Assembly: GCA_963789265.1 (NCBI GenBank)
Contig: CAWBKB010000001.1
Span: forward strand, 608,001-672,000
Direction of reading: 5' to 3'
Length of the DNA: 64,000 bases
DNA from: an uncultured delta proteobacterium
GTDB taxonomy: Bacteria; Desulfobacterota; Desulfomonilia; Desulfomonilales; Desulfomonilaceae
Shown here one piece after another: positions 778-59,162 of the stretch; the stretch's first letter is position 1; every line of letters starts with the position of its first letter. The translations under genes were made by a program, and so were the position numbers. The notes under the pieces are model-generated. The model had not been told where the DNA came from and did no database searches. It saw only the letters and a list, made by a program, of their open reading frames with translations.

Positions 778-943
778 CATAGGCGCTAACTTAAGGCAAT
801 CTTGTTACTTTTGAATAGCCATCTGCCATCAAAGTCCCCCTTTTCTAAAGGGGGATTTAGGGGGATTTTCAAAGAGTTAGACTAAAATCCCCCCTAACCC
901 CCCTTTACGAAAGGGGGGGGAAATCGTTAAGTTAGCGCCTATG
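778..943. mobile_element. MITE, CAT-terminus (IS4/IS231-like) family carrying a CCCCCTTT..AAAGGGGG REP doublet
   Basis: Perfect 17-bp TIR CATAGGCGCTAACTTAA/TTAAGTTAGCGCCTATG; 10-bp flanking duplication AGCGCATGCG/AGCACATGCG. Confidence 0.85.
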
Positions 944-1042
944 AGCACATGCGGGAATCGGGTAGGGCGGCCCGTGGCCGCCGTCCCGCGCCTCGCGGGA
1001 TCGGGCACGGCCCGACCTACTCCCGGGCCAAATCGGGGTGAC
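944..1042. repeat. REP-like composite (GTAG hairpin doublet inside dRS3-like arms)
   Basis: Near-identical to 13735-13812 (GGGAATCG.GTAGGGCGGCCCGTGGCCGCCGTCCCGCGCCTCGCGGGATCGGGCA.GGCCC.ACCTAC). Confidence 0.8.
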
Positions 1043-1067
1043 GGCTCGTGAGTAAGGCGTCAAACAA

Positions 1068-2580
1068 TCAGCCCCTTTCTGACAAACGCAAGCCTTTTGG
1101 AACAAACAACCGTTCCGAAAATTCGAAAACCCCTTGCACCAGAAGTGCGAGCAGCGCGGCCGGAACGGCTCCCTGCATGATCAGACCGATATCATCAAGT
1201 CTGATGCCGGTAAGAATAGGCTGGCCGTAACCGCCGGCACCGATCAGAGCGCCCAGAGTTGCAGTTCCGACATTGATTACCGCGGATGTCTTGATCCCGG
1301 CCAGAATCGCTCTAGATGCCATCGGCAGCTCGACCAGCCACAACCTTGCCATCGGAGGAAGGCCAATCGCCTCGGCGCTTTCTCTAATACCCGAGGGAAT
1401 ATCGTGGATTCCGATATAAGTGTTACGTATGATCGGCAAAAGGCTGTACAGAAAAAGCGCGGCCAACGCGGGGGGACCGCCGATCCCCAGCAGGGGAATC
1501 ATGAAAACGAGAAGAGCCAGAGAGGGAATGGTTTGGATAAGTCCCGCCAGGCTCAGAATAATCTGTCCTATTCTGGGCCGTTTCGCCGCGACAATACCCA
1601 GAGGCACTGAGATAATGATCGCAGCAATCAACGATATTCCCACTAGATAGAGATGCTCCCGTGTGTTTCGCCAAAGTCTGTTAACCGCGCTATGGTTTCG
1701 AACCTTAGCGTTTATGGAGAGTTTCTTTGCCAGGAAGTCAGCCGCAATCGTGTCCTCGGGTACTTTGTCGATCTTGGCTCGAGCGTTCATCTCGATCATT
1801 GCGGTCTCTGTAATTTGTCCTTCAAGTTTGGCAAGCTCGTCCACCACCCGCGGAGCACGCTTGGTCAAATCTTTTCCGTAAAGTATTACCGCGTTATAAA
1901 GCGGAAAGTAGTGGAGGTCGTCTCTCAACACGCAGAGATTGTAATATCCGATTTCAGCATCGGTGGAGTAGAGGTCTGTGGCCTGAATCGAACCGCTCTC
2001 CAGCCCGCGGTAAGCAAGATCATGGTCCATCCCGTAAACATGTTTCTGGGGTAGCCCATAGCGTTTCGAGGCCCGGCCAGCCGTCGGACCGATCCATGAA
2101 CTCATTGCTGAAGCCAAACCTGATTTCGGGGTGGTTGCGCAGGTCTGAAATCTTGGTGATGTGCTGTTTTTTGCACGTTCCTTGCTCCATGCCGATGGCA
2201 TAGTTGTCGCTGAATCCCAGCGAACGTGTCATCATAATTCCGTGTTCGCCCAAAGCCTTTCTTAATGCATCTTCGTCGTTTATGCTTTTATCAGCCAGTA
2301 TTTCCTGGATAATCGTGCCGGTATACTCTGGATAAATATCTATTTCACCTTTCAGCAGAGCATCCCACAGCACTCTCGTTCCACCCAGTTCCAGCCTCTC
2401 CACAGACTGCGCACCAGCGTGGCGGACGAGGATCGACACCATGTCGCCCAAGATCACGGACTCGGTGAACTTCTTGGAGCCTACCGTCACCTCGGGTGTT
2501 GTTCCGTCAACCGGCAAGGCGTTAGATAGAAATATAGCGATCGACAGCGCCGACAGGAAAATAATGCCTGATGTTTTCAC
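1068..2580 (-). CDS. Glycine betaine/osmoprotectant ABC transporter, fused substrate-binding + permease (frameshifted ~2067)
   Basis: N-terminal GSKKFTESVILG...IDIYPEYTGT (OpuAC/OsmF-type SBP) in ORF 2020-2652 joins the permease with QTIPSLALL and an EAA loop in ORF 1068-2201. Confidence 0.85.
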
Positions 2581-3329
2581 TGGGTGATCTGATCCAGCGC
2601 ACCATGCGAATTGCGCTGTGCGTTGACGAAACGAGTTACAAACGGATCGCAAGGCGAACTGATAAGGTCGTCGAGCGCACCTCTCTGCACGATCCCGCCG
2701 TCCTTCATAAGGACTATAATGTCCCCAAAATAAGCAGCTTCTGCCATGTCGTGGGTAACCAAAACCACGGTTTTCTTTAATGCCTGAAAAACTTTCTTCA
2801 AGTGGATCTGCAAGTCTGCACGTATCATCGGGTCGAGCGCGCCAAGAGGTTCGTCCATTAGCAGCACGTCGGGATCGAACATCAGTGCCCGCATGAGGCT
2901 GACTCTTTGTCGTTGTCCACCAGAAAGTTGCACGGGAAAGCGGTCAAGTCCGTCATGAGGGAATTGTGCCAGATCGGAGAGTTCATCGATCTTTTTCCCG
3001 ATTCTGTCTTTGCTCCAGCCGACATAACGGGCCATGAGAGTTACGTTATCGCGTGCCGTAAGGTGAGGAAAGAGTCCGCCTTCTTGGATGACGTATCCCA
3101 TTTCTCTACGAAGGGAGAGGACAGCCTCCGGTAAAACCTGAGTTTCCTTAAAATACACCGAGCCGGAATCCGGATATGTGAGGCCGATGATCAATCGAAG
3201 CAATGTTGATTTTCCGCAACCGCTCGGGCCAATTAGAGATGTTGTAATACCTTGCTGGAACGTCAGATTGATTGCCCTGAGAGCACTTACATGGCCATAA
3301 GTCTTGGTGACGTTTTTCAGATGAATCAT
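2577..3329 (-). CDS. Osmoprotectant ABC transporter ATP-binding subunit
   Basis: GPSGCGKS, GYVIQEGGLFPH, LSGGQ, LLMDEP; overlaps the permease start. Confidence 0.92.
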   Translation of the reverse strand: MIHLKNVTKTYGHVSALRAINLTFQQGITTSLIGPSGCGKSTLLRLIIGLTYPDSGSVYFKETQVLPEAVLSLRREMGYVIQEGGLFPHLTARDNVTLMARYVGWSKDRIGKKIDELSDLAQFPHDGLDRFPVQLSGGQRQRVSLMRALMFDPDVLLMDEPLGALDPMIRADLQIHLKKVFQALKKTVVLVTHDMAEAAYFGDIIVLMKDGGIVQRGALDDLISSPCDPFVTRFVNAQRNSHGALDQITQ

Positions 3330-3343
3330 GAGCTAAGGACCAA

Positions 3344-3577: not shown

Positions 3578-3674
3578 TAAAAGAAGATGCAATTGATGTG
3601 CTCTCAATCTCACTCTCCTCGGCGACGACGTGTTTGCACCGATTCGGAGATGCCGCGAAATTCGTGTTTCTGTC

Positions 3675-4747: not shown

Positions 4748-4947
4748 GTAATCATTCAATTGCGAGCGGTGAAGGACTGTCATTGCGAGCGAAGCGAAGC
4801 AATCTCTTCCTTTAAACCCCACTCAGATTGCCAGTGGGACGGGCATCCTGCCCGTCGTCCACAATAGACGGGCAGGATGCCCGTCCCACTATTCACTCCT
4901 CGCAATGACAAGGGGGAGACAATTCCCCCGCGTAAGTGAACCATTAC
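4748..4947. mobile_element. MITE, IS66-like GTAA ends, carrying GTCATTGCGAG and GTGGGAC REPs
   Basis: Ends GTAATCATTCAA/GTGAACCATTAC; exact 8-bp TSD GAATTCGA (4740-4747, 4948-4955); inverted copy at 25289-25487. Confidence 0.88.
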
Positions 4948-5067: not shown

Positions 5068-5279
5068 AAAACTATCTCAAAACCCCCTGAACAGGACGAA
5101 ATCGTAACACGGAATCCCCTCACCCTGACCCTCTCCCAAAGGGCGAGGGGACTCCAATAGCCTCCTTGGTGCCGCTCCCTCTCCTTCTGGGAGAGGGAGC
5201 GGGGTGAGGGCAACAACTATACGAATGAGACCTAATCGTGGCACGATGTTGGGCATCAAGATAGTTTTGAGACAGTTTC
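5068..5279. mobile_element. MITE, IS1182-like ends, carrying a CCCTCACCC..CCCTCTCCC REP doublet
   Basis: AAAACTATCTCAAAA/TTTTGAGACAGTTTC; 4-bp TSD ATCC; interrupts a GGGCATCCTGCCCG REP. Confidence 0.85.
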
Positions 5280-6261: not shown

Positions 6262-6328
6262 GCAGTCCTCCTCCTTTATACTCACGACTTAAATCAGTCC
6301 GCTCGCTTTTGGCCTGATTAGGTATACA

Positions 6329-6531
6329 ATAATAGTTAACCGCGGAGAACACAGAAACCGCCGAGAATTCTGTTTCGCTACGGGTCTATCCGCTGGAGCA
6401 CTGCAAGTCTTGGCCTGCGTCAGCGACAATTTCGGCCTGACTGTAAGCATGGGTGACTCAAGCGACGTTCTCTGCGAACTCTGCGGGGATCCCGCGCGGA
6501 ACGCGGGATTGATTGCCGGGTGAACGGTTAC
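6329..6531. mobile_element. MITE, IS66-like ends, with CCGCGGAG..CTCTGCGG REP cargo
   Basis: Right end GTGAACGGTTAC, degenerate left ATAATAGTTAAC; exact 8-bp TSD GGTATACA. Confidence 0.8.
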
Positions 6532-6632
6532 GGTATACACGATACTACAAAGCGGGTGCCCCGTCTCGCTCATCTCAAGCCGCAGCAGCCAATCTACTTC
6601 AAGCATTCTACCTGAGATCTCGCAAAATGGCT

Positions 6633-8313: not shown

Positions 8314-8493
8314 CATTCACGTTAAGTTAAGTGCGCCGCGTAATAAAAACTGCTGTTCAACATGTAGGATGTGCTGAACCCTGCCAAAGCAGGGGAAGCG
8401 CATCGGCCGCTTCAGCGCTCCGTCTTACACAATCGATGCGCTTCGCTTCGCTCAGCACATCCTACAAAATTGCTGCTTAACTTAACGCCTATG
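8314..8493. mobile_element. MITE, CAT-terminus family, carrying a GTAG-type REP doublet
   Basis: CATTCACGTTAAGTTAAG/CTTAACTTAACGCCTATG; exact 11-bp TSD CGCGTCACGCG; cargo GTAGGATGTGCTGA...TCAGCACATCCTAC. Confidence 0.88.
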
Positions 8494-12660: not shown

Positions 12661-12722
12661 GATCCGGTGTAACCGTTCACCGGGAAAGTGGTTTACCCGA
12701 CTTTAAGCTTAGCCGACAGGGC

Positions 12723-12877
12723 GAAAATGTCTCAAAACTAAAATGATGTCCCGAATCGTGACACGACTAGGCTTGGTGCGCATTTCGTTGCCCGCACCCT
12801 CACCCTCTCCCAAAGGGAGAGGGTGCGGGGCGTTCGTGTTACGATTTCGTCCGGTTCAAGGGTTTGGAGACACTTTA
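12723..12877. mobile_element. MITE, IS1182-like ends, inverted and internally deleted copy
   Basis: GAAAATGTCTCAAAA/TTTGGAGACACTTT; reverse-complement homology to 37032-37240; a lone IS66-like end GTAACCGTTCAC lies at 12669. Confidence 0.75.
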
Positions 12878-12959
12878 AGCACGCCGGCTCTGTGATCCCG
12901 GTAGGACCGGTCCCGCGAGACGCGGGATGCCGGTTATAAAGTCTTACAAAGGAACTTGT

Positions 12960-13457
12960 ATGGACGGGTGCTCTACTGACGGTAACGGAGAGATCTTCGA
13001 TGTCTCCCCGTATTTGAAGCTCGTGATTGACAAGGATGGCAGATGGTTCCAGAACGGAGCGGAAATTGTTCACCCTGAAATTTACCGATTCTTTTGCCGC
13101 ACGCTTGAGAAGACGGCTGACGGCGTATACATAGTCAGATTCGGTCGCGAAGTATGCCGTGTCGAAGTCGAGGACGCCCCGTTTGTGATTCAAAGTATAG
13201 ATGAAGAGAGCGACGGCCGTATAGTCATCCAATTGAACGATGGAACACGGGAGGCTTTCGACCCGGTATATTTCTGGATCGGTCACAAGAACATTCCATA
13301 TTGCCGCGTTAAAGATGGCGCGTTTCACGCGCGCTTCTCTCGGCCTGCATATTACCAATTGGCGTCTCACATAGTTTCAGACAATGATGAGAAAGACTTC
13401 TTTCTGCTCGTAAACGGCAAGAGGATACCAATTGAGTGCCACGAGCAGCCGGCGTAG
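12960..13457 (+). CDS. DUF1285-family protein
   Basis: IDKDGRWF, VEVEDAPF, ARFSRPAYYQLA. Confidence 0.8.
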   Translation: MDGCSTDGNGEIFDVSPYLKLVIDKDGRWFQNGAEIVHPEIYRFFCRTLEKTADGVYIVRFGREVCRVEVEDAPFVIQSIDEESDGRIVIQLNDGTREAFDPVYFWIGHKNIPYCRVKDGAFHARFSRPAYYQLASHIVSDNDEKDFFLLVNGKRIPIECHEQPA

Positions 13458-13504
13458 GAAATATCTTTTACAACAATTCCTAAAATAGTCACCGATATGG
13501 CCAA

Positions 13505-13835
13505 TGACTTGTGGGGACAGGCATCCCGCCCCCATTACAGTAGGGTGTCCCGCGAAAACGCGAGGGAGCCGCATCATTCGAATCTCGGCAGGCAAGTGGC
13601 TGAACAAGGAATAGTGGGGCAGGCATCTTGCCTGCCTTGGTGACAGGCAAGATGCCTGTCCCACTGGCCTGAGCCATATCCTGCGGGCTGTAGAGGCACG
13701 GCATGCCGTGCGCCTACGGGACGTCGTCATTTCCGCGCACGCGGGAATCGAGTAGGGCGGCCCGTGGCCGCCGTCCCGCGCCTCGCGGGATCGGGCATGG
13801 CCCAACCTACCTCCGGATCGGAGTCCTAGATGACG
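13505..13835. repeat. Cluster of REP-like hairpins
   Basis: GTGGGGCAGGCATCTTGCCTGCC..GACAGGCAAGATGCCTGTCCCAC doublet, GTAGAGGCACGGCATGCCGTG hairpin, and a copy of 944-1020. Confidence 0.8.
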
Positions 13836-13897
13836 AATTTTAGGCAGGATGCGTGCCGACCAGCGGCAGGGCCATGTCTGTTCAATTTGAAGTCCGT

Positions 13898-15026: not shown

Positions 15027-15287
15027 ATGAATTCTGATCCACCCAGCCGGCAATTAGATGAACTGAAAACATTGTTGTTCCCTTACATACTGATCGGACC
15101 ATTGTTGTCAGCTCTATTCGCACAGGAAATCAACGACATATTCGTAGCATGTTTATTGTTTGTCGGCATGGTGGGATCTGCTTTTTACTGGTTTTACAAG
15201 CGCTTCGAGATGATCGAAAGATCTGTCCGAGAACAAGAGGAAAAGCTCGTTGAACTGGGGGGCGGGCCGAACGAGGACATGAATTGA
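15027..15287 (+). CDS. Small two-TM hypothetical protein
   Basis: RBS AAGGA, two hydrophobic helices, charged tail. Confidence 0.55.
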   Translation: MNSDPPSRQLDELKTLLFPYILIGPLLSALFAQEINDIFVACLLFVGMVGSAFYWFYKRFEMIERSVREQEEKLVELGGGPNEDMN

Positions 15288-15389
15288 CGCACGCGATCGT
15301 TCGTTTGTAACCATCAGGAAAGAAGGATTCACCGCGGAGTGCGCCGAGATCGCATGCTTGTACGGAATTGGTGGGACAGGCATCTTGCC

Positions 15390-15710
15390 CATAGGCGTTA
15401 TAGCCGTTGCGAAAAGTAATGACTTGTTCACCACACGTCACCCCGGCGAAGGCCGGGGTCCAGAACATATTGAAAAGACTGGATTCCGGCCTCCGCCGGA
15501 ATGACGGTGTCAGGCTACCTCTAATCGGACAAAACTTTTGGCAATGGGTATAAAATAAGGGCGGAGGATTTGCTCAAAATTCCCCCTCACCCTGCCCTCT
15601 CCCGCCAGGGGCGAGGGTTTTCTTGATCCCCTGCCTCGATGGGAGGGGGAAGGGGGAGGGTGACAAGCGGCTGAAATTGCAGACGACGCTCTTTTATTTT
15701 AACGCCTATA
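15390..15710. mobile_element. MITE, CAT-terminus family, interrupted by a second element
   Basis: CATAGGCGTTA..AAATAAG/TTATTTTAACGCCTATA; exact 11-bp TSD GGCATCTTGCC inside a GTGGGACAGGC REP. Confidence 0.88.
15401..15550. mobile_element. 150-bp TA-targeting MITE (IS630-like) with dRS3-like hairpin cargo
   Basis: TAGCCGTTGCGAAAAGT/ACTTTTGGCAATGGGTA; TA duplication; 146/150 identical to 40239-40388. Confidence 0.9.
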
Positions 15711-21528: not shown

Positions 21529-23448
21529 ATGCCCGTAAATTTCGATATTTCACTGTTGACCGAAGACGACATTTTCCTGTTTAACGAAGGGAATCACTTT
21601 CGTCTGTATGAAAAGCTGGGCAGCCATGTCATCTCCGAGGAAGGGATAGACGGCGCATATTTCGCAGTGTGGGCCCCGAATGCAAATCGCGTGGGAGTAA
21701 TCGGAGATTTCAATGGGTGGAGTAAAGATGGTCACCTGCTCCGGCCCCGCGGAAGCTCGGGCATTTGGGAAGGCTTCATCTCCGGCATTGGACAGGGCGC
21801 TCGCTACAAATATTGGATTGCGTCCCAGTACAACGGGTACCAAGTGGAAAAAGCCGATCCCTTTGCCAGATACAGTGAAGTGTCACCGAAGTCTGCTTCA
21901 GTTGTATGGGCGACCGATCACAGGTGGCGGGATCAGGATTGGCTCAGGGACAGGAATCGCTATAACGGCGCGAATTCCCCCATTGCCGCGTATGAAGTGC
22001 ATCTCGGTTCGTGGATACGGGTACCTAAAGAGGATAACCGATTCTTTACCTATCGTGAGTTGGCATCGAATCTCGCGGATTACGTTCAGAACATGGGCTT
22101 CACGCATGTGCAGTTTTTGCCGGTAATGGAGCATCCTTTCTACGGTTCATGGGGCTACGAGTCGCTGGGCTACTTTTGTCCGACGAGCCGGTACGGGCCT
22201 CCCGAGGATTTCATGTACCTTATTGACGTGCTCCATCAACGAGGCATTGGTGTCATCTTGGACTGGGTCCCCTCACACTTTCCTACCGATGGTCATGGAT
22301 TGGCTTATTTTGACGGGACTCATCTTTTCGAGCATCAGGACTTCAGGAAGGGATTTCACCCGGATTGGAAAAGCTTCATCTTCAATTATGGGCGAAACGA
22401 GGTTAGAAGTTTCCTGATTAGTAGCGCATTGTTTTGGCTTGATCGGTTCCATGTGGATGGACTGCGAGTCGATGCTGTGGCGTCAATGCTCTATCTGGAC
22501 TACTCGCGCAAAGCGGGCGAATGGATCCCGAACGAGTACGGGGGCCGGGAAAATCTCGAAGCAATCTCTTTCCTGAGACTTCTCAATGAAGAAGTGTACA
22601 AGAATTTTCCTTCCGTTCAAACTGTAGCTGAGGAATCTACGGCTTGGCCCATGGTTTCCCGGCCTACCTACGTAGGTGGGTTGGGGTTTGGCATGAAATG
22701 GGATATGGGATGGATGCACGACACTTTGAAGTATATGTCCACGGATCCGCTGTTCAGGAGATATCACCATAATGAATTGACCTTCCGCATGATGTATGCC
22801 TTCAGTGAAAATTTCGTGCTACCTCTGTCTCATGACGAGGTAGTATACGGAAAGGGATCTCTCCTGGGCAAAATGCCCGGCGATGAATGGCAGAAATTCG
22901 CCAACTTGCGCTTGCTTTTTGGCTATATGTATTCGCAGCCCGGCAAGAAGCTGCTTTTCATGGGCGGTGAGTTCGGCCAGTGGGGTGAGTGGAATCATGA
23001 CGAGAGCCTCCATTGGCATCTTTTAGAGCACCCGCTCCATCAGGGACTTCAGCGCTGGGTTCAGGATTTGAACCGAGTTTACAGGGATGAACGAGGACTC
23101 CATGAGCTTGATTTCGACCAGCGGGGCTTCGAATGGATAGATTGCAATGATTCCGACAGCAGTGTTCTGAGCTTTATCCGAAAAGGGTCGGGGCCGGAAG
23201 ACACACTCGTTGTGGCGTGCAATTTTACACCGGTGCCCAGGCACAACTACATGATCGGAGTCGACTCCGGGGGTTACTGGAAGGAAGTGCTGAACAGCGA
23301 CGCCACACCGTACGGAGGCAGCGGCCAAGGCAACATAGGTGGAGTAGAAGCAGCCCCCATCTCCTGTCATGGGCGAAGCCATTGCCTCAATCTGGTACTG
23401 CCGCCTCTGGCCATGGTCCTGTTCAAGTCCGCGGACCGGGAAACGTGA
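21529..23448 (+). CDS. glgB: 1,4-alpha-glucan branching enzyme
   Basis: FAVWAPNA, GSWGY, GLRVDAVASMLY, AEEST, LSHDEVV. Confidence 0.97.
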   Translation: MPVNFDISLLTEDDIFLFNEGNHFRLYEKLGSHVISEEGIDGAYFAVWAPNANRVGVIGDFNGWSKDGHLLRPRGSSGIWEGFISGIGQGARYKYWIASQYNGYQVEKADPFARYSEVSPKSASVVWATDHRWRDQDWLRDRNRYNGANSPIAAYEVHLGSWIRVPKEDNRFFTYRELASNLADYVQNMGFTHVQFLPVMEHPFYGSWGYESLGYFCPTSRYGPPEDFMYLIDVLHQRGIGVILDWVPSHFPTDGHGLAYFDGTHLFEHQDFRKGFHPDWKSFIFNYGRNEVRSFLISSALFWLDRFHVDGLRVDAVASMLYLDYSRKAGEWIPNEYGGRENLEAISFLRLLNEEVYKNFPSVQTVAEESTAWPMVSRPTYVGGLGFGMKWDMGWMHDTLKYMSTDPLFRRYHHNELTFRMMYAFSENFVLPLSHDEVVYGKGSLLGKMPGDEWQKFANLRLLFGYMYSQPGKKLLFMGGEFGQWGEWNHDESLHWHLLEHPLHQGLQRWVQDLNRVYRDERGLHELDFDQRGFEWIDCNDSDSSVLSFIRKGSGPEDTLVVACNFTPVPRHNYMIGVDSGGYWKEVLNSDATPYGGSGQGNIGGVEAAPISCHGRSHCLNLVLPPLAMVLFKSADRET

Positions 23449-23713
23449 CACTTATCTGTTTCACCGCGATGAAGCATGAGAGATCCGTGTGAAAGGGTGA
23501 TGGCAGTTCGCCCTCAAACAGGTGAGAATCGGTCGTTAGCAAATGGCACTGACCAGGCGCCCAGAATGGGGCTTCCCGCGTCCCGCGGGAAGCTTTGTTA
23601 GATCCGTGCCGCATTTACTTGAACTTCGGAATTGTTTGATCGCGAACTCGATTGATGGACGCGTCCAGCGGCCATGCGTGTTTTTGGCCGGAATTATCAT
23701 TTCAAGGAGCATC

Positions 23714-25210
23714 ATGAACATTCGCGCAAGTGGCATCCTCTTGCACATCAGCTCTCTGCCGTCGCGTTTGGGGATCGGCGACATGGGCCCTTGGGCTTAT
23801 AGGTTTGCCGACTTCTTGGAAGAGACAAAACAGAGTTATTGGCAAATAATTCCATTGACTCCGCCCAATCCTTATCACTATTCGCCGTACCACAGCCCGT
23901 CGGCCTTTGCGGGCAATCCATTGCTGATCAGTCCCGAAATCCTTGTCCAGGAAGGCTTGCTCGATGATTCGGACGTGGAATCCGCCCCATCTTTCCCAGT
24001 GGATCGCGTGGACTTCCCCGCTGTAATGAAATTCAAGGATCAGCTTCTTGAGAAGGCTTTCGAGCGATTTTCAGCCCGCTCCGATCAAACCACGGATTTG
24101 GTTCACTTTTGCTTGGCAAATCAAAGGTGGCTTGACGATTACGCGCTTTTCAACGCGCTTTCAAAGCGATTTCAGGGAAAATTGTGGAGTGAGTGGCCTG
24201 AAGAATTGCGGGACCGGCGCGCCGATACTTTGGAAAGATGGTCGGAAGACCTTAGCGAGGCCATCAAGAAAGAACGGTTTATACAGTATCTCTTTTTCAA
24301 GCAGTGGTACGCGCTCAAAGCCTACTGCAATCGGAAACGAATTCAAATCATCGGTGATCTTCCCGTTTACGTCGATTACAGCAGTGCAGACGTATGGACT
24401 CATCCCGAGTTCTTCAAGCTGGACCCCATGAAAAAGCCGTACGTCGTGGCCGGAGTGCCGCCTGACTATTTCAGTCCGACAGGCCAGTTGTGGGGCCATC
24501 CCATCTACGACTGGGACGCTCTAGAGAAAGCCGGATACTCCTGGTGGGTGGACCGAATCGAGCATAACGTGGCCCAGTGCGATCTACTGCGGATCGACCA
24601 TTTTCGGGGCTTCATGGGATATTGGGAAGTTCCTGCAAGCGAGAAAACCGCTCTCAACGGCAAATGGGTTGAGGGTCCGGGAAGAGACTTCTTCGAGACC
24701 GTCTCACGACGATTTCCGCGACTGCCGATCATCGCTGAAGATCTCGGGGTCATCACTCCGGATGTGCGAGAAGTAATATGTGAATTCGGGTTTCCCGGCA
24801 TGAAGCTGTTGCTGTTCGCTTTCGGCAAGGATTGTCCCACCAACCCTTATGCACCGCACAACATTCCCCGAAATTGCATCGTTTTCACCGGGACTCACGA
24901 CAACAACACAGTCAAAGGGTGGTTCAGACACGAGGCTACGCCTGGCGACAAAAAAAGATTCTTTGGATACATGGGACGGGAAATCGGGGAAGACGATATC
25001 CATTGGGAGATGTGCCGGCTGGCCATGATGACCAGGGCCGACACAGTGATTTTGCCCATGCAGGATATTCTTGGCCTGGGTCAGGAAGCTCGCATGAATC
25101 TCCCTTCGCAAAAGGAAGGTAACTGGATGTGGAGACTCTTGCCCGATCTCCTCACGCCCGAAATTGCCCGGGAGCTTCGACTACTCACAGAGATTTACGG
25201 CAGAGCGTGA
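23714..25210 (+). CDS. malQ: 4-alpha-glucanotransferase
   Basis: RASGILLHISSLP, GVPPDYFS, RIDHFRG, AEDLG, TGTHDN. Confidence 0.96.
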   Translation: MNIRASGILLHISSLPSRLGIGDMGPWAYRFADFLEETKQSYWQIIPLTPPNPYHYSPYHSPSAFAGNPLLISPEILVQEGLLDDSDVESAPSFPVDRVDFPAVMKFKDQLLEKAFERFSARSDQTTDLVHFCLANQRWLDDYALFNALSKRFQGKLWSEWPEELRDRRADTLERWSEDLSEAIKKERFIQYLFFKQWYALKAYCNRKRIQIIGDLPVYVDYSSADVWTHPEFFKLDPMKKPYVVAGVPPDYFSPTGQLWGHPIYDWDALEKAGYSWWVDRIEHNVAQCDLLRIDHFRGFMGYWEVPASEKTALNGKWVEGPGRDFFETVSRRFPRLPIIAEDLGVITPDVREVICEFGFPGMKLLLFAFGKDCPTNPYAPHNIPRNCIVFTGTHDNNTVKGWFRHEATPGDKKRFFGYMGREIGEDDIHWEMCRLAMMTRADTVILPMQDILGLGQEARMNLPSQKEGNWMWRLLPDLLTPEIARELRLLTEIYGRA

Positions 25211-25288: not shown

Positions 25289-25487
25289 GTAACCATTTAC
25301 TTATGCTGGGGAACTTCTTCATCATGTCATTGCGAGGAGCAGATAGTAGGACAGGCATCCTGCCTGTCTATTATGGACGACGGGCAGGATGCCCGTCCCA
25401 CTGGCAATCTAAGCGGCGTTTAAAAGAAAAGATTGCTTCGCTGCGCTCGCAATGACAATCTCTTCCCGCGCGAAAGTGAATGCGTAC
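25289..25487. mobile_element. MITE, IS66-like ends (inverted copy of 4748-4947)
   Basis: GTAACCATTTAC/GTGAATGCGTAC; exact 8-bp TSD GTTTCCTT. Confidence 0.88.
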
Positions 25488-27878: not shown

Positions 27879-28103
27879 TCTCGTTCCCAGGCTCTGCCTC
27901 GCCCCCGATTGTGTAACAAAGGCGGTTTGCGGGCAGAGCCCGCCAGGTATGGATTCAAATCGAGGCAGGGGTGCAATTCGTGGCACGATCGACTTTTGCC
28001 CCGGTAATCCCGCGTTCCGCGGGACCGGGCTATTATCGGCAGTCCCTACGGGACGCTTGCATTTGAGTCCCATTGGGGCGACAGAAAGTGGACCGGTGCT
28101 TCA
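27879..28103. repeat. REP-like modules shared with 40521-40700 and 52496-52649
   Basis: TCTCGTTCCCAGGCT.TGCCT and TTCGTGGCACGAT...CATTGGGGCG.AGAAAGT homologies. Confidence 0.7.
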
Positions 28104-28312
28104 GAAACTGTCTCAAAAACAATGAAGCGGTCGGAATCGTAGCACGAATCCCTCACCCTGTGCCCCTCTCCCAGAGGGCGAGGGAAGAGCAAAACTGCCC
28201 TGGATCTGCTCCCTCTCCCTCTGGGAGAGGGTTGGGGTGAGGGCGACGACTATACGAATGAGCCTGAATCGTGCCACGATTCCAGGCATCAAATTAGTTT
28301 TGGGACAGTTTG
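28104..28312. mobile_element. MITE, IS1182-like ends
   Basis: GAAACTGTCTCAAAA/TTTTGGGACAGTTTG; homologous to 5068-5279. Confidence 0.85.
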
Positions 28313-29823: not shown

Positions 29824-30010
29824 TATGGGCGTTAAAATAGCCCAGTGGGACTCAGCGTTCCCCCCTTTTTAAAAGGGGGGCCAGGGGGATTTTGCTTTAA
29901 CTCCTTGGAAATCCCCCTAAATCCCCCTTTAAGAAAGGGGGACTTTGATGGCCTGTCAGCGACGTGAAGTGCTCTAAACTATCAGAATTAGCTCTAATTT
30001 AACGCCCATG
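29824..30010. mobile_element. MITE, CAT-terminus family, same cargo as 778-943 (inverted)
   Basis: TATGGGCGTTAAAATAG/CTAATTTAACGCCCATG; imperfect TSD AGGGAGTAGGGG/AGGGAAAGGGG. Confidence 0.8.
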
Positions 30011-37031: not shown

Positions 37032-37240
37032 GAAACTGTCTCAAAATTCTTGAACTGGACGCAATCGTAACACGAAATTCCCTCACCCTTACTCTCTCCC
37101 AAAGGGCGAGGGAACGCTAATAGAGACCTTGGATCAGCTCCCTCTCCCTCTGAGAGAGGGCTGGGGTGAGGGCACCGAAAATGCTGACAGGCTTAATCGT
37201 GGCACGATTCTGGACATCAAATTAGTTTTGAGACAGTTTG
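37032..37240. mobile_element. MITE, IS1182-like ends
   Basis: GAAACTGTCTCAAAA/TTTTGAGACAGTTTG; 4-bp TSD TGGA. Confidence 0.88.
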
Positions 37241-37336: not shown

Positions 37337-39078
37337 ATGAACGAGGATCACCCACAACCTCCCGGATTCGCTAAACGCATAATCGAAAAATATGTTTCGG
37401 CTGAGTCTAATACATTTATCGTCTACGGAAATACTAAAGACATATACCCTGTATCAACAGACCATTACCTCCCGTTGGTCGATTTCTTAGTTCAAGCACT
37501 CATAAAACCTTACAAGGCAGGTTCTCCCAGGATAGTCGTTCTGTACGATCCGGCAGGCGGAATATCTTCTCAAATCCCCTGGATATGCGCCTCATCGGTA
37601 GCGAAATCGGGGAGGACCGCCTGGGAAGAATCTTGTCATCCGCGCGCGCTGACATCGTCACGGCATTGGCGGCGCTGCGCGAATTCACTCGCTTGAGCGT
37701 AATGGTCCCCCTTGAAGGAGACCCGGCGAAAAAGGTTCGCAAAGACTTTGCCGTGATCATACGCTACGGCGAAGCGGTGGCCCCTCCATCAAGAGGGGAG
37801 ATGATGTTGGATTCCGATAGACTCAAAGTGATAACACTGGAGAACTGGTTTACCGATAGTGCCTTTGTAGCATCCTCGGACATTGTCTTTGTCGTGAGCG
37901 AAACATTGCATGGAATTAGCGAACGAATTGTGGACCTGCCGTACTGCTCGGCCATCAAAATCGACAGGCCGGATGAAGATCAAAGAAGGAAGTACATCGA
38001 GTATCTGATAAAAGAAGATAAGATCCAAACGGCCGTCGAGCCCCGGCAAATAGCTTATAACTGCGCAGGGCTCTCGCTGCTTTCCATGAGACAAATCTTT
38101 CGACAGGGAGCGTACAAAGCTCAACCTCTCACGCCCGAACTTGTCTTCGAGAAGACCAAAGAAATCATCGAGAAGGAGTTGGAGGGGCATATCGAGTTCC
38201 CGGTTCTCAACTACGGCTTCGAAAGAATTATTGGCGCTTCAAAGCTGTTGAAGAAACTGAGTGAATTGAAAAGCTGCATCAGAGGCGACAATCCGGAAGT
38301 CATGCCCGTGGGGATATTGGTGGCCGGAGCCAATGGTGTGGGAAAGACTTTCATATACAAGGCCTTTGCAAAGGAGTGCGGCTGGGTAGCAGTGGTACTC
38401 AAGAATATTCGCGGGCCGTATGTCGGCCAGACCGAAAAGAACTGGGAGAGAATACGATCGGTGCTGGAAGCCATGGGAAACGTGATGGTCCTCTACGACG
38501 AGGCTGACACCGAAATCGGCGGCCGCAGCGCTCAAACTCACGAAGTGGATCGACGGCTGTTCGGAAACATTCTCAAAATGATGTCCGATCCCGGCAATCG
38601 TGGGAAGATTATCTGGATCATTATTACTGCGCGGCCTGATCGCTTAGAGCCGGATATAAAACGATCGGGCCGAGCCGGAGATCATCTCCCCGTGTTTGAC
38701 AATGAGGGCGAGGAGAGAGAGATTTTCATCAAGTATGTTCTGGCCCAAGCCGGCATAGCGCTGGAAAAGTTCTCCCCCGAACAATACGACGACTTTCTAC
38801 GGCTCACTTCCGAGTATTATCCCGCGGACTTCGACCAGCTTCTCACACAACTGAGACGCCGCAAGCTTGTGGAAGGAGACCTCATCCCCGAAATGGTCAT
38901 CGACGAAGTCAAAGACTTCATTCCTTCGGATGTCGCCCGCCAACGGGAGTATCAGGAGCTTCTAGCCGCACTGGAATGCACGTCCCGTGAATTGCTCCCC
39001 AGCCGGTATGCACGGCTGTCGCGTGAATCCATCGAAAAAAGGGTCCGTGAAATCCGGGCCGGCATGGGTGATGCATAA
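37337..39078 (+). CDS. Classical-clade AAA+ ATPase (frameshift ~37565)
   Basis: Walker A GANGVGKT, pore loop PYVGQTE, Walker B VLYDEAD, SRH TARPDRLEPDIKRSGR. Confidence 0.88.
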
Positions 39079-40133
39079 TGCTGGTGCTGGGTATAGAAAC
39101 GTCTTGCGACGAGACCGCTGCCGCGGTGGTCGAATCGGGTACAAAGGTGCTTTCGGATGTGGTGGTTTCCCAGATTGACGTGCACAAAGAGTATGGAGGC
39201 GTGGTACCGGAGTTGGCTTCCAGGAAGCATATCGAAGCCATTTCCTTAGTAATAGAGCAAGCTTTTCATGATGCCCGGATCGAACCCAAAGATATTAACG
39301 GGATCGGAGTCACCCGCGGGCCCGGTCTGATTGGATCTTTGCTCGTAGGCATCAGTGCGGCAAAAGGCATGGCCCTTGCTCTGAGCTGTCCGCTTTGTGG
39401 AGTGAATCACCTCCACGGCCATTTATTTGCAGCGTTTCTCGAACGCAGTGATATAACTTTTCCGTTTGTGGGTCTGGTCGTTTCGGGGGGACACACAAGT
39501 CTTTACGATGTCCGGGGGCCGCTCGATATACGCCCGATCGGTAAAACTCGGGACGATGCTGCGGGCGAAGCCTTCGACAAGGTAGCCAAACTGCTGGGAC
39601 TTGGATATCCTGGGGGAAGAGTAATTGAAGAGCAGGCGCGAGGCGTTGAACCCGGCGCGATCCACTTTCCCAGAGCCCTTATGGAGAAGGACAACCTGGA
39701 TTTCTCGTTCTCCGGGCTCAAGACCGCGGTATTGCGTCAGTCCGAGAAAATGTTCGGCATTTCGCAAAGAAATGACATCCCGGGCAGCTTCCATCCGGTT
39801 GTAGCGCCGGAGGAAGTCGGTGAAACGAGCGCGGGAATTCGAGCTATAGCGGCCGCGTTTCAAGATGCAGTAACTGATGTGCTCGTAGCAAAGGCGTTCA
39901 ATGCCGCTCAGATGTACCGGGTGGATAAGCTCATTATTTGCGGAGGCGTCGCGGCCAACGGAGAGTTGAGAAAAAAGATGGGTCTCGAAGGAACACGCCG
40001 CGGTATAGAGCCGATCTTTCCGTCTCCGAGACTGTGTACTGATAACGCGGCCATGATCGCGGCCCGTGCTGATACGCTCCTTGGCGCAGGGATGGTGGAT
40101 GATTTGAACTTTGGCGCTATAAGCCGCTGGTGA
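39078..40133 (+). CDS. tsaD: tRNA N6-threonylcarbamoyltransferase
   Basis: LGIETSCDET, GGVVPELASRKH, HLHGH, SGGHT, DDAAGEAFDK, CTDNAAMI. Confidence 0.97.
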   Translation: MLVLGIETSCDETAAAVVESGTKVLSDVVVSQIDVHKEYGGVVPELASRKHIEAISLVIEQAFHDARIEPKDINGIGVTRGPGLIGSLLVGISAAKGMALALSCPLCGVNHLHGHLFAAFLERSDITFPFVGLVVSGGHTSLYDVRGPLDIRPIGKTRDDAAGEAFDKVAKLLGLGYPGGRVIEEQARGVEPGAIHFPRALMEKDNLDFSFSGLKTAVLRQSEKMFGISQRNDIPGSFHPVVAPEEVGETSAGIRAIAAAFQDAVTDVLVAKAFNAAQMYRVDKLIICGGVAANGELRKKMGLEGTRRGIEPIFPSPRLCTDNAAMIAARADTLLGAGMVDDLNFGAISRW

Positions 40134-40238: not shown

Positions 40239-40388
40239 TAGTCGTTGCCAAAAGTAATGACCTGTTCACCACCCGTCACCCCGGCGAAGGCCGGGGTCCA
40301 GAACATATTGAAAAGACTGGATTCCGGCCTCCGCCGGAATGACGGTGTCAGGCTACCTCTAATCGGACAAAACTTTTGGCAATGGGTA
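40239..40388. mobile_element. 150-bp TA-targeting MITE (copy of 15401-15550)
   Basis: TIRs, TA duplication, 4 mismatches to the other copy. Confidence 0.9.
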
Positions 40389-40498: not shown

Positions 40499-40755
40499 GA
40501 AACTGTCTCAAAATCGAGGCATAAGAGGAATTTGTAGCACGATGCCCCCTTGCCCGGCAATCCCGCGTTTTCTCGTTCCCAGGCTTTGCCTGGGAATGCC
40601 TATCGCGAGGCTCTGCCTCGCCTATGAGGGTGAAATAAAATTAGTTTGCGGGCAGAGCCCGCGAGATATGGGTTCCCAGGCGGAGCTTGGGAACCAGAAC
40701 TCTGGCGGCTTTCATAGCAAGATCTCGACCTGGTCCGCACTTTTGAGACAGTTTC
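40499..40755. mobile_element. MITE, IS1182-like ends, with different REP cargo
   Basis: Perfect TIR GAAACTGTCTCAAAA/TTTTGAGACAGTTTC; cargo GTTCCCAGGCTTTGCCTGGGAA hairpins. Confidence 0.85.
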
Positions 40756-52330: not shown

Positions 52331-52681
52331 GAAACTGTCTCAAAACTCTTGAATTGGACGCAATCGTAACACGAAATTCCCTCACCCTGACCCTCTCTCA
52401 AGGGGCGCGGGGACGCTAATAGAGACCTTGGATCAGCTCCCTCGCCCTCTGGGAGAGGGCTGGGGTGAGGGCACCGAAAATGCCCACCAGGCTTAATCGT
52501 GCCACGACGGCAGCCCTGCGCCGAAGCGCGGGTCTACTTTCTAGCGCCCCAATGAGGCTCAAATGCACGTGGCCGGAGGGACCGGTGATAGTAGCTCGGT
52601 CCCGCGCAGGACGCGGGATTGCCGGGAAAAGGGGGCAGCGTGCTACGAATTTCGTTTGTGCTTTGGTTTTGAGACAGTTTC
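52331..52681. mobile_element. MITE, IS1182-like ends, two-module variant
   Basis: Perfect TIR; first ~175 bp closely match 37032, followed by an extra ~150-bp module. Confidence 0.88.
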
Positions 52682-53119
52682 GGAAAGCCCGCCCCACGCA
52701 AGTGAATGCTAACACTCCTTGCAATCTCACCTTGACCGTTGAGAATCGGCATGTTATCGGTGGCTTTATCCCTCCGGCGAATCTGACGGACGTGAAGGTT
52801 TAACGCAGACCTTCAGCTTCAGAATTCCGAGGGGGGAATTGTCAAGTTTGTTACAAGTGTCGTATCTCAGTAATCGGTGCACCCTGCAATCAATCCCGCG
52901 TACCGCGCGGGATCGCCGCAGAGTGCGCATAGAAAAAAGAATAGCATATTCAACGCTACGTGAATCACCCAGGCGAGCGCTCAGGCCGAAATTGGCCCCT
53001 TTGTCGCAGACCGGGACTTCCGGTGCTCGAACGGATAGACGCTCTGCAAAACAGCATTCTCTGAGGTCTCTGCGTTCTCTGTGGTGAGCTTTCGCTTATT
53101 TCATAATTGCGGAGGGAAG

Positions 53120-53928: not shown

Positions 53929-54333
53929 TCAGTCCTCTCCTCTCCTTCGGGCTAATGGACATGGTTTCGGCCGGGGCCGGCGCACCGGCATCGGCCAAGC
54001 CTCGGCAGGGCCTCCTTATATCACAATGCAACAGCAGCACAACCGTAATTTTGGCATGCATTCAGTTACAGCCGGAATTTACCGGTGGCTTCGTGGGGTG
54101 GGCTTTCTAGCCCGCCATTGAACAGGGGTTTCCGCGGCAGGCTGTCCCGCGCCTCGCGGGACTGCCCCACAAGACTGAATGGATACTAATTTTGTGTGCT
54201 TTTCCTTGACCTGCCCATCAGTCTTTGCATAATAAGATCAAACTTTTCAGGCTCTGCGAGAGAAGTTCTTTCTTCCACTCGCTTTACCGATGAATCATGA
54301 ATAACAACAGGGCAGGTGCCCGAGAGGAAAGCA

Positions 54334-55975: not shown

Positions 55976-56055
55976 GGTGTCCCGAGGACCGCAAAAGGAC
56001 TCGTGTGGTGGTTTATTACTGGTTGTCGTAAGTGCGGTCGCGGATTTTCAAGGTA

Positions 56056-56130
56056 GAGATTGCTTCGTCGTTTCACTCCTCGCAATGACATTCCCACTAC
56101 CTGTCATTGCGAGCGCAGCGAAGCAATCTT
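56056..56130. repeat. GTCATTGCGAG..GAAGCAATCT REP doublet
   Basis: Same family as the cargo of the 4748 and 25289 elements. Confidence 0.8.
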
Positions 56131-56243
56131 CTTCCGTACCGGGTCCTCATGTCACAGTATTTGCGAAAAGGAGTACTCAGTCGTCGGCCCAGAACCCCGA
56201 GTCAGTAACACCGCCACAGAATTCCCGGCGAACGGAGGCTGGC

Positions 56244-56597: not shown

Positions 56598-56856
56598 TCG
56601 GGAAAGCTCGATCAGCCTGACTCATGGGCCGGGCCTTGCTGCTTGCGGCGGGAGATCGCCGCGGAGGTCGGCTTCGTTACTCCACACTGAGCAGGAATGG
56701 ACGGCGCGAAAAGAGGGAGTCAAGAAACAAGAGCTGACGCCGTTGGGGGCATTACTCGAACAAAACTGCGAATGATACCGTTCCGCAGTGAACCGGGTGA
56801 TTCTTTGCGTTTTGGGCTTGTTGGGGCAGAGAGAAAAGGCCGAGAAAACTGCTCAA

Positions 56857-57387: not shown

Positions 57388-57460
57388 CTGCCATCCCTGT
57401 CCTAATTTCCAGCGAGAGAAATTGACCCCTCAGCAATTTGCGACTCCCGGTAGCGTATGA

Positions 57461-58888
57461 TTATCGACTCATGTCGATGATTTCCATCCGATTATTTGTA
57501 TCCGGGTATTTGGAAGAAGGGCCTTCTGTTAAGATCACCAGACGCGGTTCAATTCCATGCGATTCAAGCCACGATCGAGCATACGCCTTCCAGTTGTGCG
57601 GATGATCGGGTTCGTGGATCGGCCAAACACCATACGAAAACAACAGCTTCTGGCACGTGGCCCTTTGAGAGCTTACAGATGTAATCCATGCAGGCAGCTT
57701 GTATCGGCTCAAGATTCTGGCTGTTCTGCCGCTTCTCGTTGGAACTATCACAACATCCGGTGTGACTCGTTCCACCACGGTGAGGACGCCAAGCGCCACG
57801 AGGTCGGCTAGAACGGTGCCGCCGCTCCGATCGCGTTCCGTCAGTGCCTGTCTGGCCGGGAAATAGGTCCGGTGCGGCTCGACAGCCTCGGCAATCCGGG
57901 CCAGCATGCCTACACATTCCACTGGATACCGGCCCATGGCGGACTCCTCCGATAGCATAACACAATCGGTGCCGTCCAGGATGGCATTGGCAACATCCGT
58001 AGACTCCGCGCGGGTAGGACGCCGGTTCCTGGTCATCGATTCCAACATCTGAGTGGCTGTAATAACCGGCTTACCCAGCACATTCGCCTTCTGAATCAAT
58101 TGCTTCTGTACAACCGCGATCCGTTCTATGGGGATTTCCACGCCAAGATCACCGCGGGCTACCATGATACCGTCAGCCGCATGCAAAATACTGTCGATTT
58201 GATCGAGTGCCCCGGAACGTTCTATTTTAGCTATGATAAGTAAGTTCCCACCTAAGACCGTTACTGCATCGCGGACCGCCTCAATGTCCTTGGCAGACTC
58301 CACAAAAGACTGACTGACCGCATCGATTCCCTGTTCCACGGCAAATCTGAGACACTCTTGATCCCGGTCGGTGAACGCACTAATTCCAAGATCTATACCG
58401 GGTAAGTTGAGCCCTTTTCGGGAGCGAAGCTCTCCGCCGACCAGCACCCGGCACCGAACTTCCGGTCCCGACACTTCCAGAACTTTCAACTGGATCAGTC
58501 CGTCGTTGAGGAAAAGGGCGTCGCCTTTCTTAACGACGTCGGGCAGATGTGCAAAACTAACTGAAGCCCTTGTCTTGTCTCCCACGATATTCTGAGTGGT
58601 CAACGTAAAGGTGGTCCCAATCTCTAATTCTATAGGCTCACCGGCTAACTCCCCAATCCGCATCTTGGGACCGGGCAGATCGGCCATGATGGCCACAGAC
58701 CTGCCCGCTACTTCGGATGCTCTTCTAATTAAGTCAATTCTGTGTTTGTGAGCCGTGAGATCTTCGTGAGAAAAATTCAGTCGCGCAACATTCATCCCTG
58801 CGCAAATCATCTCTTCAAGAATCGCAACCGAGTCTGATGCAGGCCCGATTGTGCATACTATTTTTGTTTTGTGGGCTGAAAGGTTCAT
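57461..58888 (-). CDS. pyk: Pyruvate kinase
   Basis: TKIVCTIGPAS, ARLNFSH, IAKIE, MVARGDLG, ATQMLES, DVANA. Confidence 0.97.
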   Translation of the reverse strand: MNLSAHKTKIVCTIGPASDSVAILEEMICAGMNVARLNFSHEDLTAHKHRIDLIRRASEVAGRSVAIMADLPGPKMRIGELAGEPIELEIGTTFTLTTQNIVGDKTRASVSFAHLPDVVKKGDALFLNDGLIQLKVLEVSGPEVRCRVLVGGELRSRKGLNLPGIDLGISAFTDRDQECLRFAVEQGIDAVSQSFVESAKDIEAVRDAVTVLGGNLLIIAKIERSGALDQIDSILHAADGIMVARGDLGVEIPIERIAVVQKQLIQKANVLGKPVITATQMLESMTRNRRPTRAESTDVANAILDGTDCVMLSEESAMGRYPVECVGMLARIAEAVEPHRTYFPARQALTERDRSGGTVLADLVALGVLTVVERVTPDVVIVPTRSGRTARILSRYKLPAWITSVSSQRATCQKLLFSYGVWPIHEPDHPHNWKAYARSWLESHGIEPRLVILTEGPSSKYPDTNNRMEIIDMSR

Positions 58889-58932
58889 GATGTTCGGTGC
58901 CCCCTTTTGCCGTCCGACTATCTCCAGGATAT

Positions 58933-59162
58933 TATCCCGATTCGCTTTTAAACAAGTGACATCGTGTTTCTGGTAGGGGCGGGTTTCAAACCCGCCCTTA
59001 CATGTCGTCATGTCGAGTACGCGGGCACTGTAGGGGCACCTCTTGTGGGTGCCCACGAGAGAGCAGACACTAGGTCTGCCCCACGTGCCCGGATAGGAGC
59101 CCAGGGTAACCCCGCTATATCCTGTCTAGGGTTGTCATTCGATTCACGACGTATTGAGACTA
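58933..59162. mobile_element. Composite non-autonomous element (family of 3344-3577)
   Basis: Shared left and right ends with different GTAG REP cargo. Confidence 0.65.

Follow-up and report, generated by a model that had tools for sequence, protein, structure and literature searches.

How do short hairpin repeats and miniature transposons of unrelated families come to be nested in one another along a bacterial chromosome? We took up this question for a stretch of 64,000 nucleotides (the window; G000:C1:608001-672000) from assembly GCA_963789265.1 of an uncultured delta proteobacterium, in which an earlier note had listed 15 miniature transposable elements with inverted repeats (MITEs) filled with hairpins resembling repetitive extragenic palindromic (REP) sequences, and had proposed that these hairpins both ride in the shells and serve as their landing pads. 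The whole assembly was scanned (6.06 Mb in 9 contigs, the largest of 2.59 Mb, with a contig GC content of 51-53%); it is a metagenome-assembled genome with an estimated completeness of 95.6% and contamination of 6.1%, and genome coordinates are given as contig:position (C1, C3, C4 and so on). An element with inverted ends is present at all 15 sites, and the at least four end families with distinct target duplications that had been read from the window correspond to four MITE shells found genome-wide, named here A, B, C and T. Families A and C, and an IS1595-family element named D, insert at the tips of hairpins and short palindromes of many different sequences, and B shells carry true REP doublets. 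We consider it probable, at roughly 70%, that hairpins are the organising feature of a genome-wide community of mobile DNA, of which the window is a sample.

Comparison with a same-genus genome, G001 (84-93% identity), which is collinear with window positions 5287-43395 on one contig and with the first ~13 kb of the window on another, shows the empty site exactly at one A locus (778), one B locus (25289) and two C loci (5068 and 37032). At 25289, G001 has a single copy of GTTTCCTT, and at 778 it has the uninterrupted hairpin CCCGCGCACGCGGG, which in the window is split with a 10-bp duplication. The B element at 4748 is missing as a whole from the orthologous site and the C MITE at 28104 is likewise missing, as is the block 12670-12943 around the decayed C element at 12723, which contigs from two relatives' metagenome runs also lack. 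G001 has a rearrangement or duplication in the region that corresponds to the A MITE at 15390, and at the place of the 29824 element it holds another A-type MITE nested in a remnant. Collapsed repeats or chimeric joins, introduced in assembly or binning, could mimic nesting of this kind, and the estimated contamination of 6%, the two divergent copies of the region in G001 and the breaking of public-run short-read contigs at repeats all suit such an artefact. It is nevertheless extremely improbable: the assembly consists of only 9 contigs of up to 2.59 Mb, the duplications are precise, as are the empty sites in a relative assembled independently, and the same MITE families are present in 6/6 same-genus genomes searched.

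MITE shells and their transposases

For family C, the autonomous element that matches the MITE is present in the genome. The exact 15-mer C end occurs 89 times in 6.06 Mb, against ~0.01 expected by our own arithmetic, and 253 times at up to two mismatches; pairing of ends gives 100 C pairs. Eighteen autonomous copies of 1675-1677 bp have ends identical to those of the MITE (GAAACTGTCTCAAAA), and the same ends bound ~75 miniature pairs of up to 700 bp, mostly of ~209 bp. The C transposase (476-487 amino acids) matches Pfam DDE_Tnp_1_6, DUF772 and DDE_Tnp_1 and scores 363.8 bits against the NCBIfam IS1182 model NF033551 (cut-off 270), identifying C as a member of the IS1182 family whose autonomous copies appear to be active. 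Hairpins of the CCCTCTCCC class reside mostly in C (33/50 within recognised C shells), and within the window the interiors behind C ends differ, those at 40499 and 52331 being unlike that at 5068.

Family A has ends of the form CAT-AGGCGTT-AA-CT-TAA (such as CATAGGCGTTAACTTAAG, CATAGGCGTTAAAATAAG and CATAGGCGTTAA..TAA) and makes duplications of 10-12 bp. The exact end motif is found in 85 copies in 6.06 Mb compared with ~3 expected (again our own arithmetic), rising to 201 at up to one mismatch, and the ends form 45 pairs. The IS231 subgroup is characterised by the signature 'CAT-------AA--TAA---' and by direct repeats of 10-12 bp (PMC2266710, Table 1), both of which are matched by A, and this signature supports a putative assignment of A to the IS4 family, IS231 subgroup. 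No autonomous A copy and no A transposase, sought as a YREK-motif DDE gene between A ends, was found in this assembly, to which the search was confined. The genome has 19 matches to PF01609; 18 belong to the IS1182 element C and one to an IS701 gene, which we rejected as a partner of A on its unrelated ends. Two 'A pairs' of 3057-3063 bp (C1:1641746-1644808 and C4:43328-46384) were likewise rejected as autonomous A copies, being IS1595 elements with ends of their own nested in A MITEs. No fewer than four interiors, unrelated to one another, stand behind identical A ends, and hairpins of the CCCCCTTT class are concentrated in A (35/79 within recognised A shells).

These nested IS1595 elements constitute family D, which has its own ends (CGATATTATACTTGCCAAACC) and five copies, full copies among them. 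The D transposase, a zinc-ribbon plus DDE protein, scores 162.8 bits against NCBIfam NF033547 (cut-off 75) and has Pfam matches as well. Passenger open reading frames (ORFs) in D encode a 113-amino-acid GIY-YIG-like product and products of 308-352 amino acids that lack a known function, and 4/5 D copies lie within or beside A ends.

Family B comprises 82 pairs genome-wide, with a perfect 8-bp duplication in 32 and one of at most one mismatch in 54. B has GTAA-type ends and an 8-bp duplication, the signature of the IS66 family. An exact B end (GTAACCATTCACTTACG) lies 250 bp from a frameshifted IS66 transposase remnant (PF03050, C7:313691-314468), which has no second end; no intact autonomous IS66 copy with B ends was found in the assembly, and a second IS66 gene (C3:479571) was dismissed as a partner because it is without B-type ends. 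Family T has 23 pairs of 138 or 151 bp, most of them with TA flanks. Duplication of TA is a trait of IS630/Tc1-mariner elements, and the TA flanks of T agree with it; the two IS630 copies in the genome have ends (CTAGTGTCCTGTCCC..) unlike those of T, and no autonomous T partner was found in this assembly. Among the family assignments proposed earlier, IS1182 for C is secured by its transposase, IS231 for A agrees with the end signature, and IS66 for B holds in part, through the broken copy; for T as IS630, the TA flanks agree and the ends of the resident IS630 copies do not. Autonomous elements with matching ends are accordingly at hand for C and, in broken form, for B, and are lacking in this assembly for A and T.

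Insertion into hairpins

Analysis of insertion targets demonstrates that three of these families insert into hairpins. For C we examined 95 pairs, scoring a target as palindromic when at least 6/8 bases flanking the 4-bp duplication are complementary, and compared them with 20000 random sites. A 4-bp duplication with at most one mismatch is present at 73/95 pairs, and 41/73 of these targets are palindromic compared with 100/20000 random sites (0.5%). The hairpins entered by C include REPs (GGACGGGCA-TCT-TGCCCGTCC), GGCAGGCT-TTCC-AGCCTGCC, CGCCGGC-AGGGAC-GCCGGCG and others. Flanks read by eye place 15/18 autonomous C copies in CCCGGC..GCCGGG hairpins, six of them within ~265-bp A-type MITEs. 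For A, an 11-bp duplication at up to two mismatches is recognised in 15/41 pairs, and 13/15 of these are palindromic at 3/5 positions or more, against 10.6% of random sites. The A targets are mini-hairpins (TCCCGCG-NNN-CGCGGGA), the tops of REPs and CGTC-type hairpins, with the duplication centred on the loop. D has inserted twice independently, in the two CCCCCTTT hairpins of A MITEs, with duplications of 12-13 bp. IS1595-family elements duplicate 8 bp, and the duplications of D are longer. The duplicated part is the loop for C (4 bp) and the loop plus upper stem for A (10-12 bp) and D (12-13 bp).

These counts bear out, for A, C and D, the earlier proposal that hairpins and REPs serve as landing pads. 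Related behaviour has been described for other elements: IS1272/TnSha1, of the IS1182 family, targets hairpins that lack sequence conservation, deleting part of the target and making no duplication (PMC4923244), target specificity is reported for IS231 (PMC2266710), and landing of insertion sequences (ISs) in REPs is known for other families (PMC1525189; PMC3184786). Target choice in A, C and D would be structural or symmetry-based rather than sequence-based. Each insertion would create new landing sites, because the non-autonomous elements are themselves made of hairpins, and these new sites would lead to stacks up to three or four layers deep. At 15390, a T MITE occupies a TA within the left end of an A MITE that itself lies within a REP.

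Several of the 18 IS1182 copies separate hairpin halves that derive from different variants, for example CCCGGCAAT.. as the left half and ..GCGCCGGG as the right half. Flank-swapping recombination between IS copies would produce such mixed halves.

Hairpin cargo

True REPs and their transposase genes exist in this genome, with the GT[AG]G head, the hairpin, the doublet arrangement and the flanked genes all observed. We counted 321 GT[AG]G-headed units and 63 head-out doublets, together with seven Y1-transposase matches, of which three (C7:408822-409439, C3:99509-100036 and C5:552004-552648) exceed the NCBIfam cut-off for REP-associated tyrosine transposases (RAYTs). REP hairpins flank or overlap these three genes and a fourth at C3:1051264-1051857, as had been anticipated. 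The HUH and Y motifs can be read in the translated RAYT genes, which look intact. Two near-identical ORFs of ~370 amino acids (C4:127739-128857 and C1:91569-92702) join a RAYT-like Y1 domain to a DnaA-like C-terminal DNA-binding domain. A Y1 fragment at C6:391845, which might have tied the GTAGCCCGGC hairpins of A-type MITEs to a RAYT, adjoins a decayed A-type MITE holding an IS1182 copy and was set aside as uninformative.

Carriage of REP doublets in B shells is directly observed. The 63 doublets divide into 31 that stand free among unrelated flanks and 32 inside B shells. These shells occupy 24.1 kb of the 1.08 Mb not covered by long frames (2.2%; binomial P = 6e-36, a value that overstates the case because copies are not independent); the association of shell and cargo exceeds what shared intergenic location predicts. 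Among the 54 B elements with a duplication of at most one mismatch, 19 hold a REP, eight a full doublet and 11 a mini-hairpin. At many loci B copies that hold hairpin cargo are bounded by 8-bp duplications of their own, and G001 lacks such copies as whole units; composite elements of this kind would move as units, and extra REP copies would arise whenever a REP-holding shell transposes.

Much of the remaining cargo is made of CGTC/NTS-type hairpins of the kind found beside GIY-YIG genes, or of family-specific hairpins, and not of RAYT-type REPs. The earlier description of the interiors as REP-like doublets is correct in that hairpins fill the shells, and fails in that many of them are CGTC/NTS-like or family-specific and unlike the REPs that go with RAYTs. 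Di Nocera et al. (PMC3733652) defined the two superfamilies, GTAG and CGTC. T shells, too, contain hairpin doublets, with the CGTC hairpins arranged as an inverted pair. NTS-like hairpins occur in 117 copies at up to three mismatches to the core, taken as the first 25/28 positions of the published NTS motif, and the SRM pattern has 225 matches on both strands, which do not extend to the hairpins of the B inner module. Five small GIY-YIG genes (PF01541) are flanked by hairpin repeats, three by B-inner hairpins, one by NTS-like and CGTCACCCCGG hairpins and one by a T-cargo hairpin. At C7:55729-56229, a B-type element of ~500 bp with IS66-like ends and an imperfect 8-bp duplication contains a GIY-YIG gene between two B-inner hairpins. 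Without a gene of their own, the B inner module and the common 145-bp B MITE look derived from such a hairpin-nuclease-hairpin cassette. The only PDB relative of the small GIY-YIG proteins is UPF0213 (E = 3e-4).

Interiors vary behind the same B ends in a graded series. The base inner module measures 76-85 bp and the form with a REP doublet 131 bp; where a mini-hairpin takes the place of the B-hairpin loop the length is 141-143 bp, and where the REP tips are replaced too it is 147-168 bp. The largest forms have a T MITE inside them (231 and 309 bp) or have the mini-hairpin occupied by an A MITE (247, 287 and 314 bp). A sub-family of 121-122 bp consists of little beyond the ends and a doublet of another REP class, and in its 133-bp variants a mini-hairpin substitutes for one REP tip. 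Together with at least four interiors behind A ends and the differing C interiors, this series confirms that one shell can enclose different contents.

The mini-hairpin is a unit of 17-21 bp (TCCCGCG-N3-5-CGCGGGA) with 272 copies genome-wide, and its core is that of the NTS-like repeat. Its flanks are very diverse, the commonest flank pair being seen only seven times, and 58/272 copies (21%) lie within a larger hairpin compared with 102/5000 random sites. It takes the place of 6-8 bases at the tips of other hairpins, namely REPs, B-inner hairpins and REPs carried by A, and is not a clean insertion. One gain in the window relative to G001 was seen by eye near 27950, among few alignable intergenic stretches. 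We advance only tentatively the idea of a modular exchange in which hairpin repeats pass from shell to shell through a single-strand hairpin mechanism, with DDE MITE shells as vehicles and nurseries. The mini-hairpin, which replaces apices and is then itself the favoured landing site of the IS231-like MITE, would be the clearest sign of this exchange.

The interior hairpins could instead be functional parts of the MITEs, such as sub-terminal transposase binding sites or terminators, that resemble one another through descent, recombination or gene conversion. The concentration of CCCCCTTT in A and of CCCTCTCCC in C fits this explanation, as do the lack of any enzyme gene beside hairpins of either class and the base forms of B, which have no GT[AG]G REPs. 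It accounts poorly for the GT[AG]G REPs and CGTC/NTS-like hairpins, which are free in many contexts and flank RAYT or GIY-YIG genes, for mini-hairpins spread over very many flank contexts, and for unrelated interiors behind the same A ends. We find it improbable.

A more ambitious reading, close to that of the earlier note, joins two or three enzymes in a dispersal cycle, in which REPs carried by shells are re-amplified on the spot by a RAYT (or a GIY-YIG nuclease), the new hairpins attract further DDE insertions, and each partner ends up with copies that it would otherwise lack. Carriage is observed, as are landing pads, free REP doublets of the same classes stand in unrelated flanks, and the RAYT genes, three of them above the family cut-off, look intact; in one clear example (C1:1230357 compared with C1:2010072), a REP-doublet inner module occupies an outer shell that otherwise holds a different inner module. 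No event was caught, however, of a shell-borne REP seeding free copies, and transfer between free and shell-borne REPs could have run in either direction. Hairpin targeting, moreover, comes with these transposase families in general and requires no partner (PMC4923244, PMC2266710), and several abundant hairpin classes never occur within recognised shells (42/42, 42/42, 42/42 and 35/35 copies outside). We consider such a cycle doubtful. The hitch-hiking of REPs and their use as landing pads stand, and nothing separates a cooperative cycle from a by-product of target choice. The reciprocity of shells and hairpins is most simply explained by target preference combined with capture of cargo, which makes an evolved two-enzyme cycle unnecessary.

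We favour the simpler view of a community of mobile DNA organised around hairpins. It would comprise five DDE families, with IS1182 (C) and IS1595 (D) as complete elements, a broken IS66 (B), and IS231-like (A) and TA-targeting (T) elements as MITEs only, and two superfamilies of small hairpins, the GT[AG]G REPs beside RAYT genes and the CGTC/NTS-like hairpins beside GIY-YIG genes. Several observations weigh against it. In the symmetric test 32/73 C targets are non-palindromic, and the 82 B pairs listed show no obvious pattern in their targets. REP doublets occupy one main position in the B inner module and at least one second position, and a few captures followed by amplification are indistinguishable here from site-specific insertion. 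The CCCCCTTT hairpins of A and the CCCTCTCCC hairpins of C may be just parts of those MITEs. For the small GIY-YIG proteins no NCBIfam match was found, leaving their membership of the Ssn subfamily (cd10448) putative. Present-day mobility of A, B and T is deduced from duplications and empty sites because an intact autonomous copy is lacking, and the assembly is a metagenome-assembled genome with 6% estimated contamination. Empty sites, IS ends that match a shell and an excess association of shell and cargo, the three findings whose lack would have told against the earlier proposal, are all present.

Table 1. Mobile elements and hairpin repeats of the window, in window coordinates, and the genomic copies of D.
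Feature	Position	Duplication or flanks	Ends, interior and remarks
A MITE	778-943	10 bp, imperfect, within NTS-like hairpin	Ends CATAGGCGCTAACTTAA; interior is a CCCCCTTT hairpin pair
B MITE	4748-4947	8 bp, GAATTCGA	Inner inverted repeat GTCATTGCGAG; GTGGGAC-headed REP doublet 4834-4889
C MITE	5068-5279	4 bp, ATCC	In loop of REP-like hairpin GGGCATCC/TGCCCGTCC
Decayed B-like element	6329-6531	8 bp, GGTATACA	Good right end GTAACCGTTCAC, left end degenerate; mini-hairpin TCCCGCG..CGCGGGA at 6490-6508
A MITE	8314-8493	11 bp, perfect, CGCGTCACGCG, top of mini-hairpin	Interior unrelated
Decayed C element	12723-12877	No clean duplication	Left end only, GAAAATGTCTCAAAA; one CCCTCTCCC hairpin
Block of free hairpin repeats	13469-13874		Free REP doublet 13614-13664; NTS-like CGTCATTTCCGCGCACGCGGGAATC 13725-13749; mini-hairpin 13774-13790
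A MITE	15390-15710	11 bp, GGCATCTTGCC, top of GTGGGAC REP	CCCTCACCC/GGGAGGG hairpin pair inside
T MITE	15401-15550	TA	Inside left end of A at 15390
B MITE	25289-25487	8 bp, GTTTCCTT	REP doublet 25346-25401
C MITE	28104-28312	No clean duplication	209 bp; ends present
A MITE	29824-30010		Variant ends (..TAAAATAG); cargo CCCCCTTT hairpins
C MITE	37032-37240	4 bp, TGGA	
T MITE	40239-40388	TA	Ends TAGTCGTTGCCAAAAGT; two CGTC-tagged hairpins in inverted order, 40274-40297 and 40320-40344
C shell	40499-40755	No clean duplication	Different interior, hairpins TTCCCAGGC.. and GCGGGCAGAGCCCGC
C shell	52331-52681	No clean duplication	351 bp; mixed interior including mini-hairpin 52600-52618
Two B-inner-type hairpins, back to back	56058-56134		Upstream of DUF2007 gene; arrangement as around GIY-YIG genes elsewhere
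Mini-hairpins	984-1000, 6490-6508, 12911-12927, 13774-13790, 23574-23590, 28008-28024, 52600-52618, 52894-52912, 54145-54161		
D copies	C1:1641852-1644724, C4:43370-46236, C1:2246811-2249678, C6:260930-263132, C4:37931-41516		~2.2-3.6 kb

The genes of the window are ordinary for the chromosome of an anaerobe and include GlgE-pathway enzymes, 2-hydroxyglutaryl-CoA dehydratase, ribosomal protein S1, TsaD and pyruvate kinase, and an Rfam scan of the window returned no family reaching its gathering score. ORFs of 100-130 codons lying over MITEs or hairpin repeats, such as 6289-6606 and 15130-15468, are probably spurious. The block of free hairpin repeats at 13469-13874 is absent from G001, and a metagenome contig from one relative joins 13429 to 13874. 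A 215-bp stretch at 23449-23664, between a branching-enzyme-like gene (21529-23448) and a 4-alpha-glucanotransferase gene (23543-25210), is also missing in G001; it holds a mini-hairpin, and recognisable shell ends were not seen there. The two divergent copies of the compared region in G001 lie on contigs C4 and C55 and could be explained by strain mixture or duplication. G001 has insertions of its own, of 1.0-1.3 kb and with no counterpart in the window, at ~21936-23192 and 38424-39448 of locus L020/L021 (G001:C55).

Relation to known systems

Each ingredient of this community is already known, and their combination is unusually rich. IS231 forms modular MIC231 cassettes in which the same ends surround different cargo; unlike these cassettes, A carries hairpin repeats and not genes. 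The very small repeats of cyanobacteria that Elhai and colleagues are said to have described in 2008, of ~20-27 nt, reportedly lie inside other repeats and at hairpin tips; by that account they differ in sequence from the repeats here and come from a different phylum. A shares its end signature, its 10-12 bp duplications and its target specificity with the IS231 subgroup as surveyed by De Palmenaer et al. 2008 (PMC2266710), a subgroup given there as almost restricted to Firmicutes, whereas the host of A is a delta proteobacterium whose genome lacks a copy of the transposase. C resembles IS1272/TnSha1 of staphylococci (Furi et al. 2016, PMC4923244) in its IS1182-family transposase and its hairpin targets. 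By contrast with the blunt stem cut and partial target deletion described in that paper, C enters the loop with a 4-bp duplication and has spawned ~75 MITE copies of ~209 bp.

The GT[AG]G hairpins, inverted doublets and REP-flanked RAYT genes are those of the REP/REPIN-RAYT systems outlined by Nunvar 2010 (PMC2817692) and Bertels & Rainey 2011 (PMC3116915). Unlike the REP systems published so far, half of the REP doublets here are within IS66-type MITEs. ISs that land in REPs have been reported (Tobes & Pareja 2006, PMC1525189; Delihas 2011, PMC3184786), and those that these two papers present are mostly of IS110 and IS3 type, whereas three duplication-making DDE families do so here. GIY-YIG genes between hairpins, and NTS-like copies, recall the NTS/SRM repeats and Ssn GIY-YIG single-strand nucleases presented by Chenal et al. 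2025 (PMC11893778), from which this genome differs in that its B-inner hairpins depart from the SRM pattern and one cassette lies inside IS66-type ends. The nearest published match is a short passage on palindrome-enclosed REP dimers, in which Di Nocera et al. (PMC3733652) note REP dimers regularly inside longer inverted repeats in Anabaena variabilis, Thermomicrobium roseum and Halothiobacillus neapolitanus. The palindromes are not treated there as transposon shells, nor does the passage speak of duplications or empty sites; the shells here have family-typical ends, duplications and empty sites. Nowhere in the literature that we searched, supplements aside, did we meet a report that combines regular carriage of REP doublets or NTS-like hairpins by DDE MITEs with reciprocal targeting.

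Small bacterial repeats are usually catalogued family by family. The present genome indicates that, where transposases select the tips of hairpins and non-coding elements are themselves made of hairpins, dense repeat stacks of many layers can arise, and that REP doublets gain copies by riding in MITEs. In practical terms, such stacks break short-read assemblies and yield spurious ORFs, and repeats such as MITEs and hairpins would inflate counts of hypothetical proteins; their recognition improves the annotation of uncultured genomes. The genome also offers a natural system for structural target choice by transposases of IS1182, IS231 and IS1595 type, for the question of whether RAYT and Ssn-like nucleases act on embedded repeats, and for how very short hairpins spread. 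If modules are indeed exchanged between shells, the mini-hairpin would be among the smallest mobile units known, and DDE, HUH and GIY-YIG enzymes would be tied into one self-reinforcing repeat economy.

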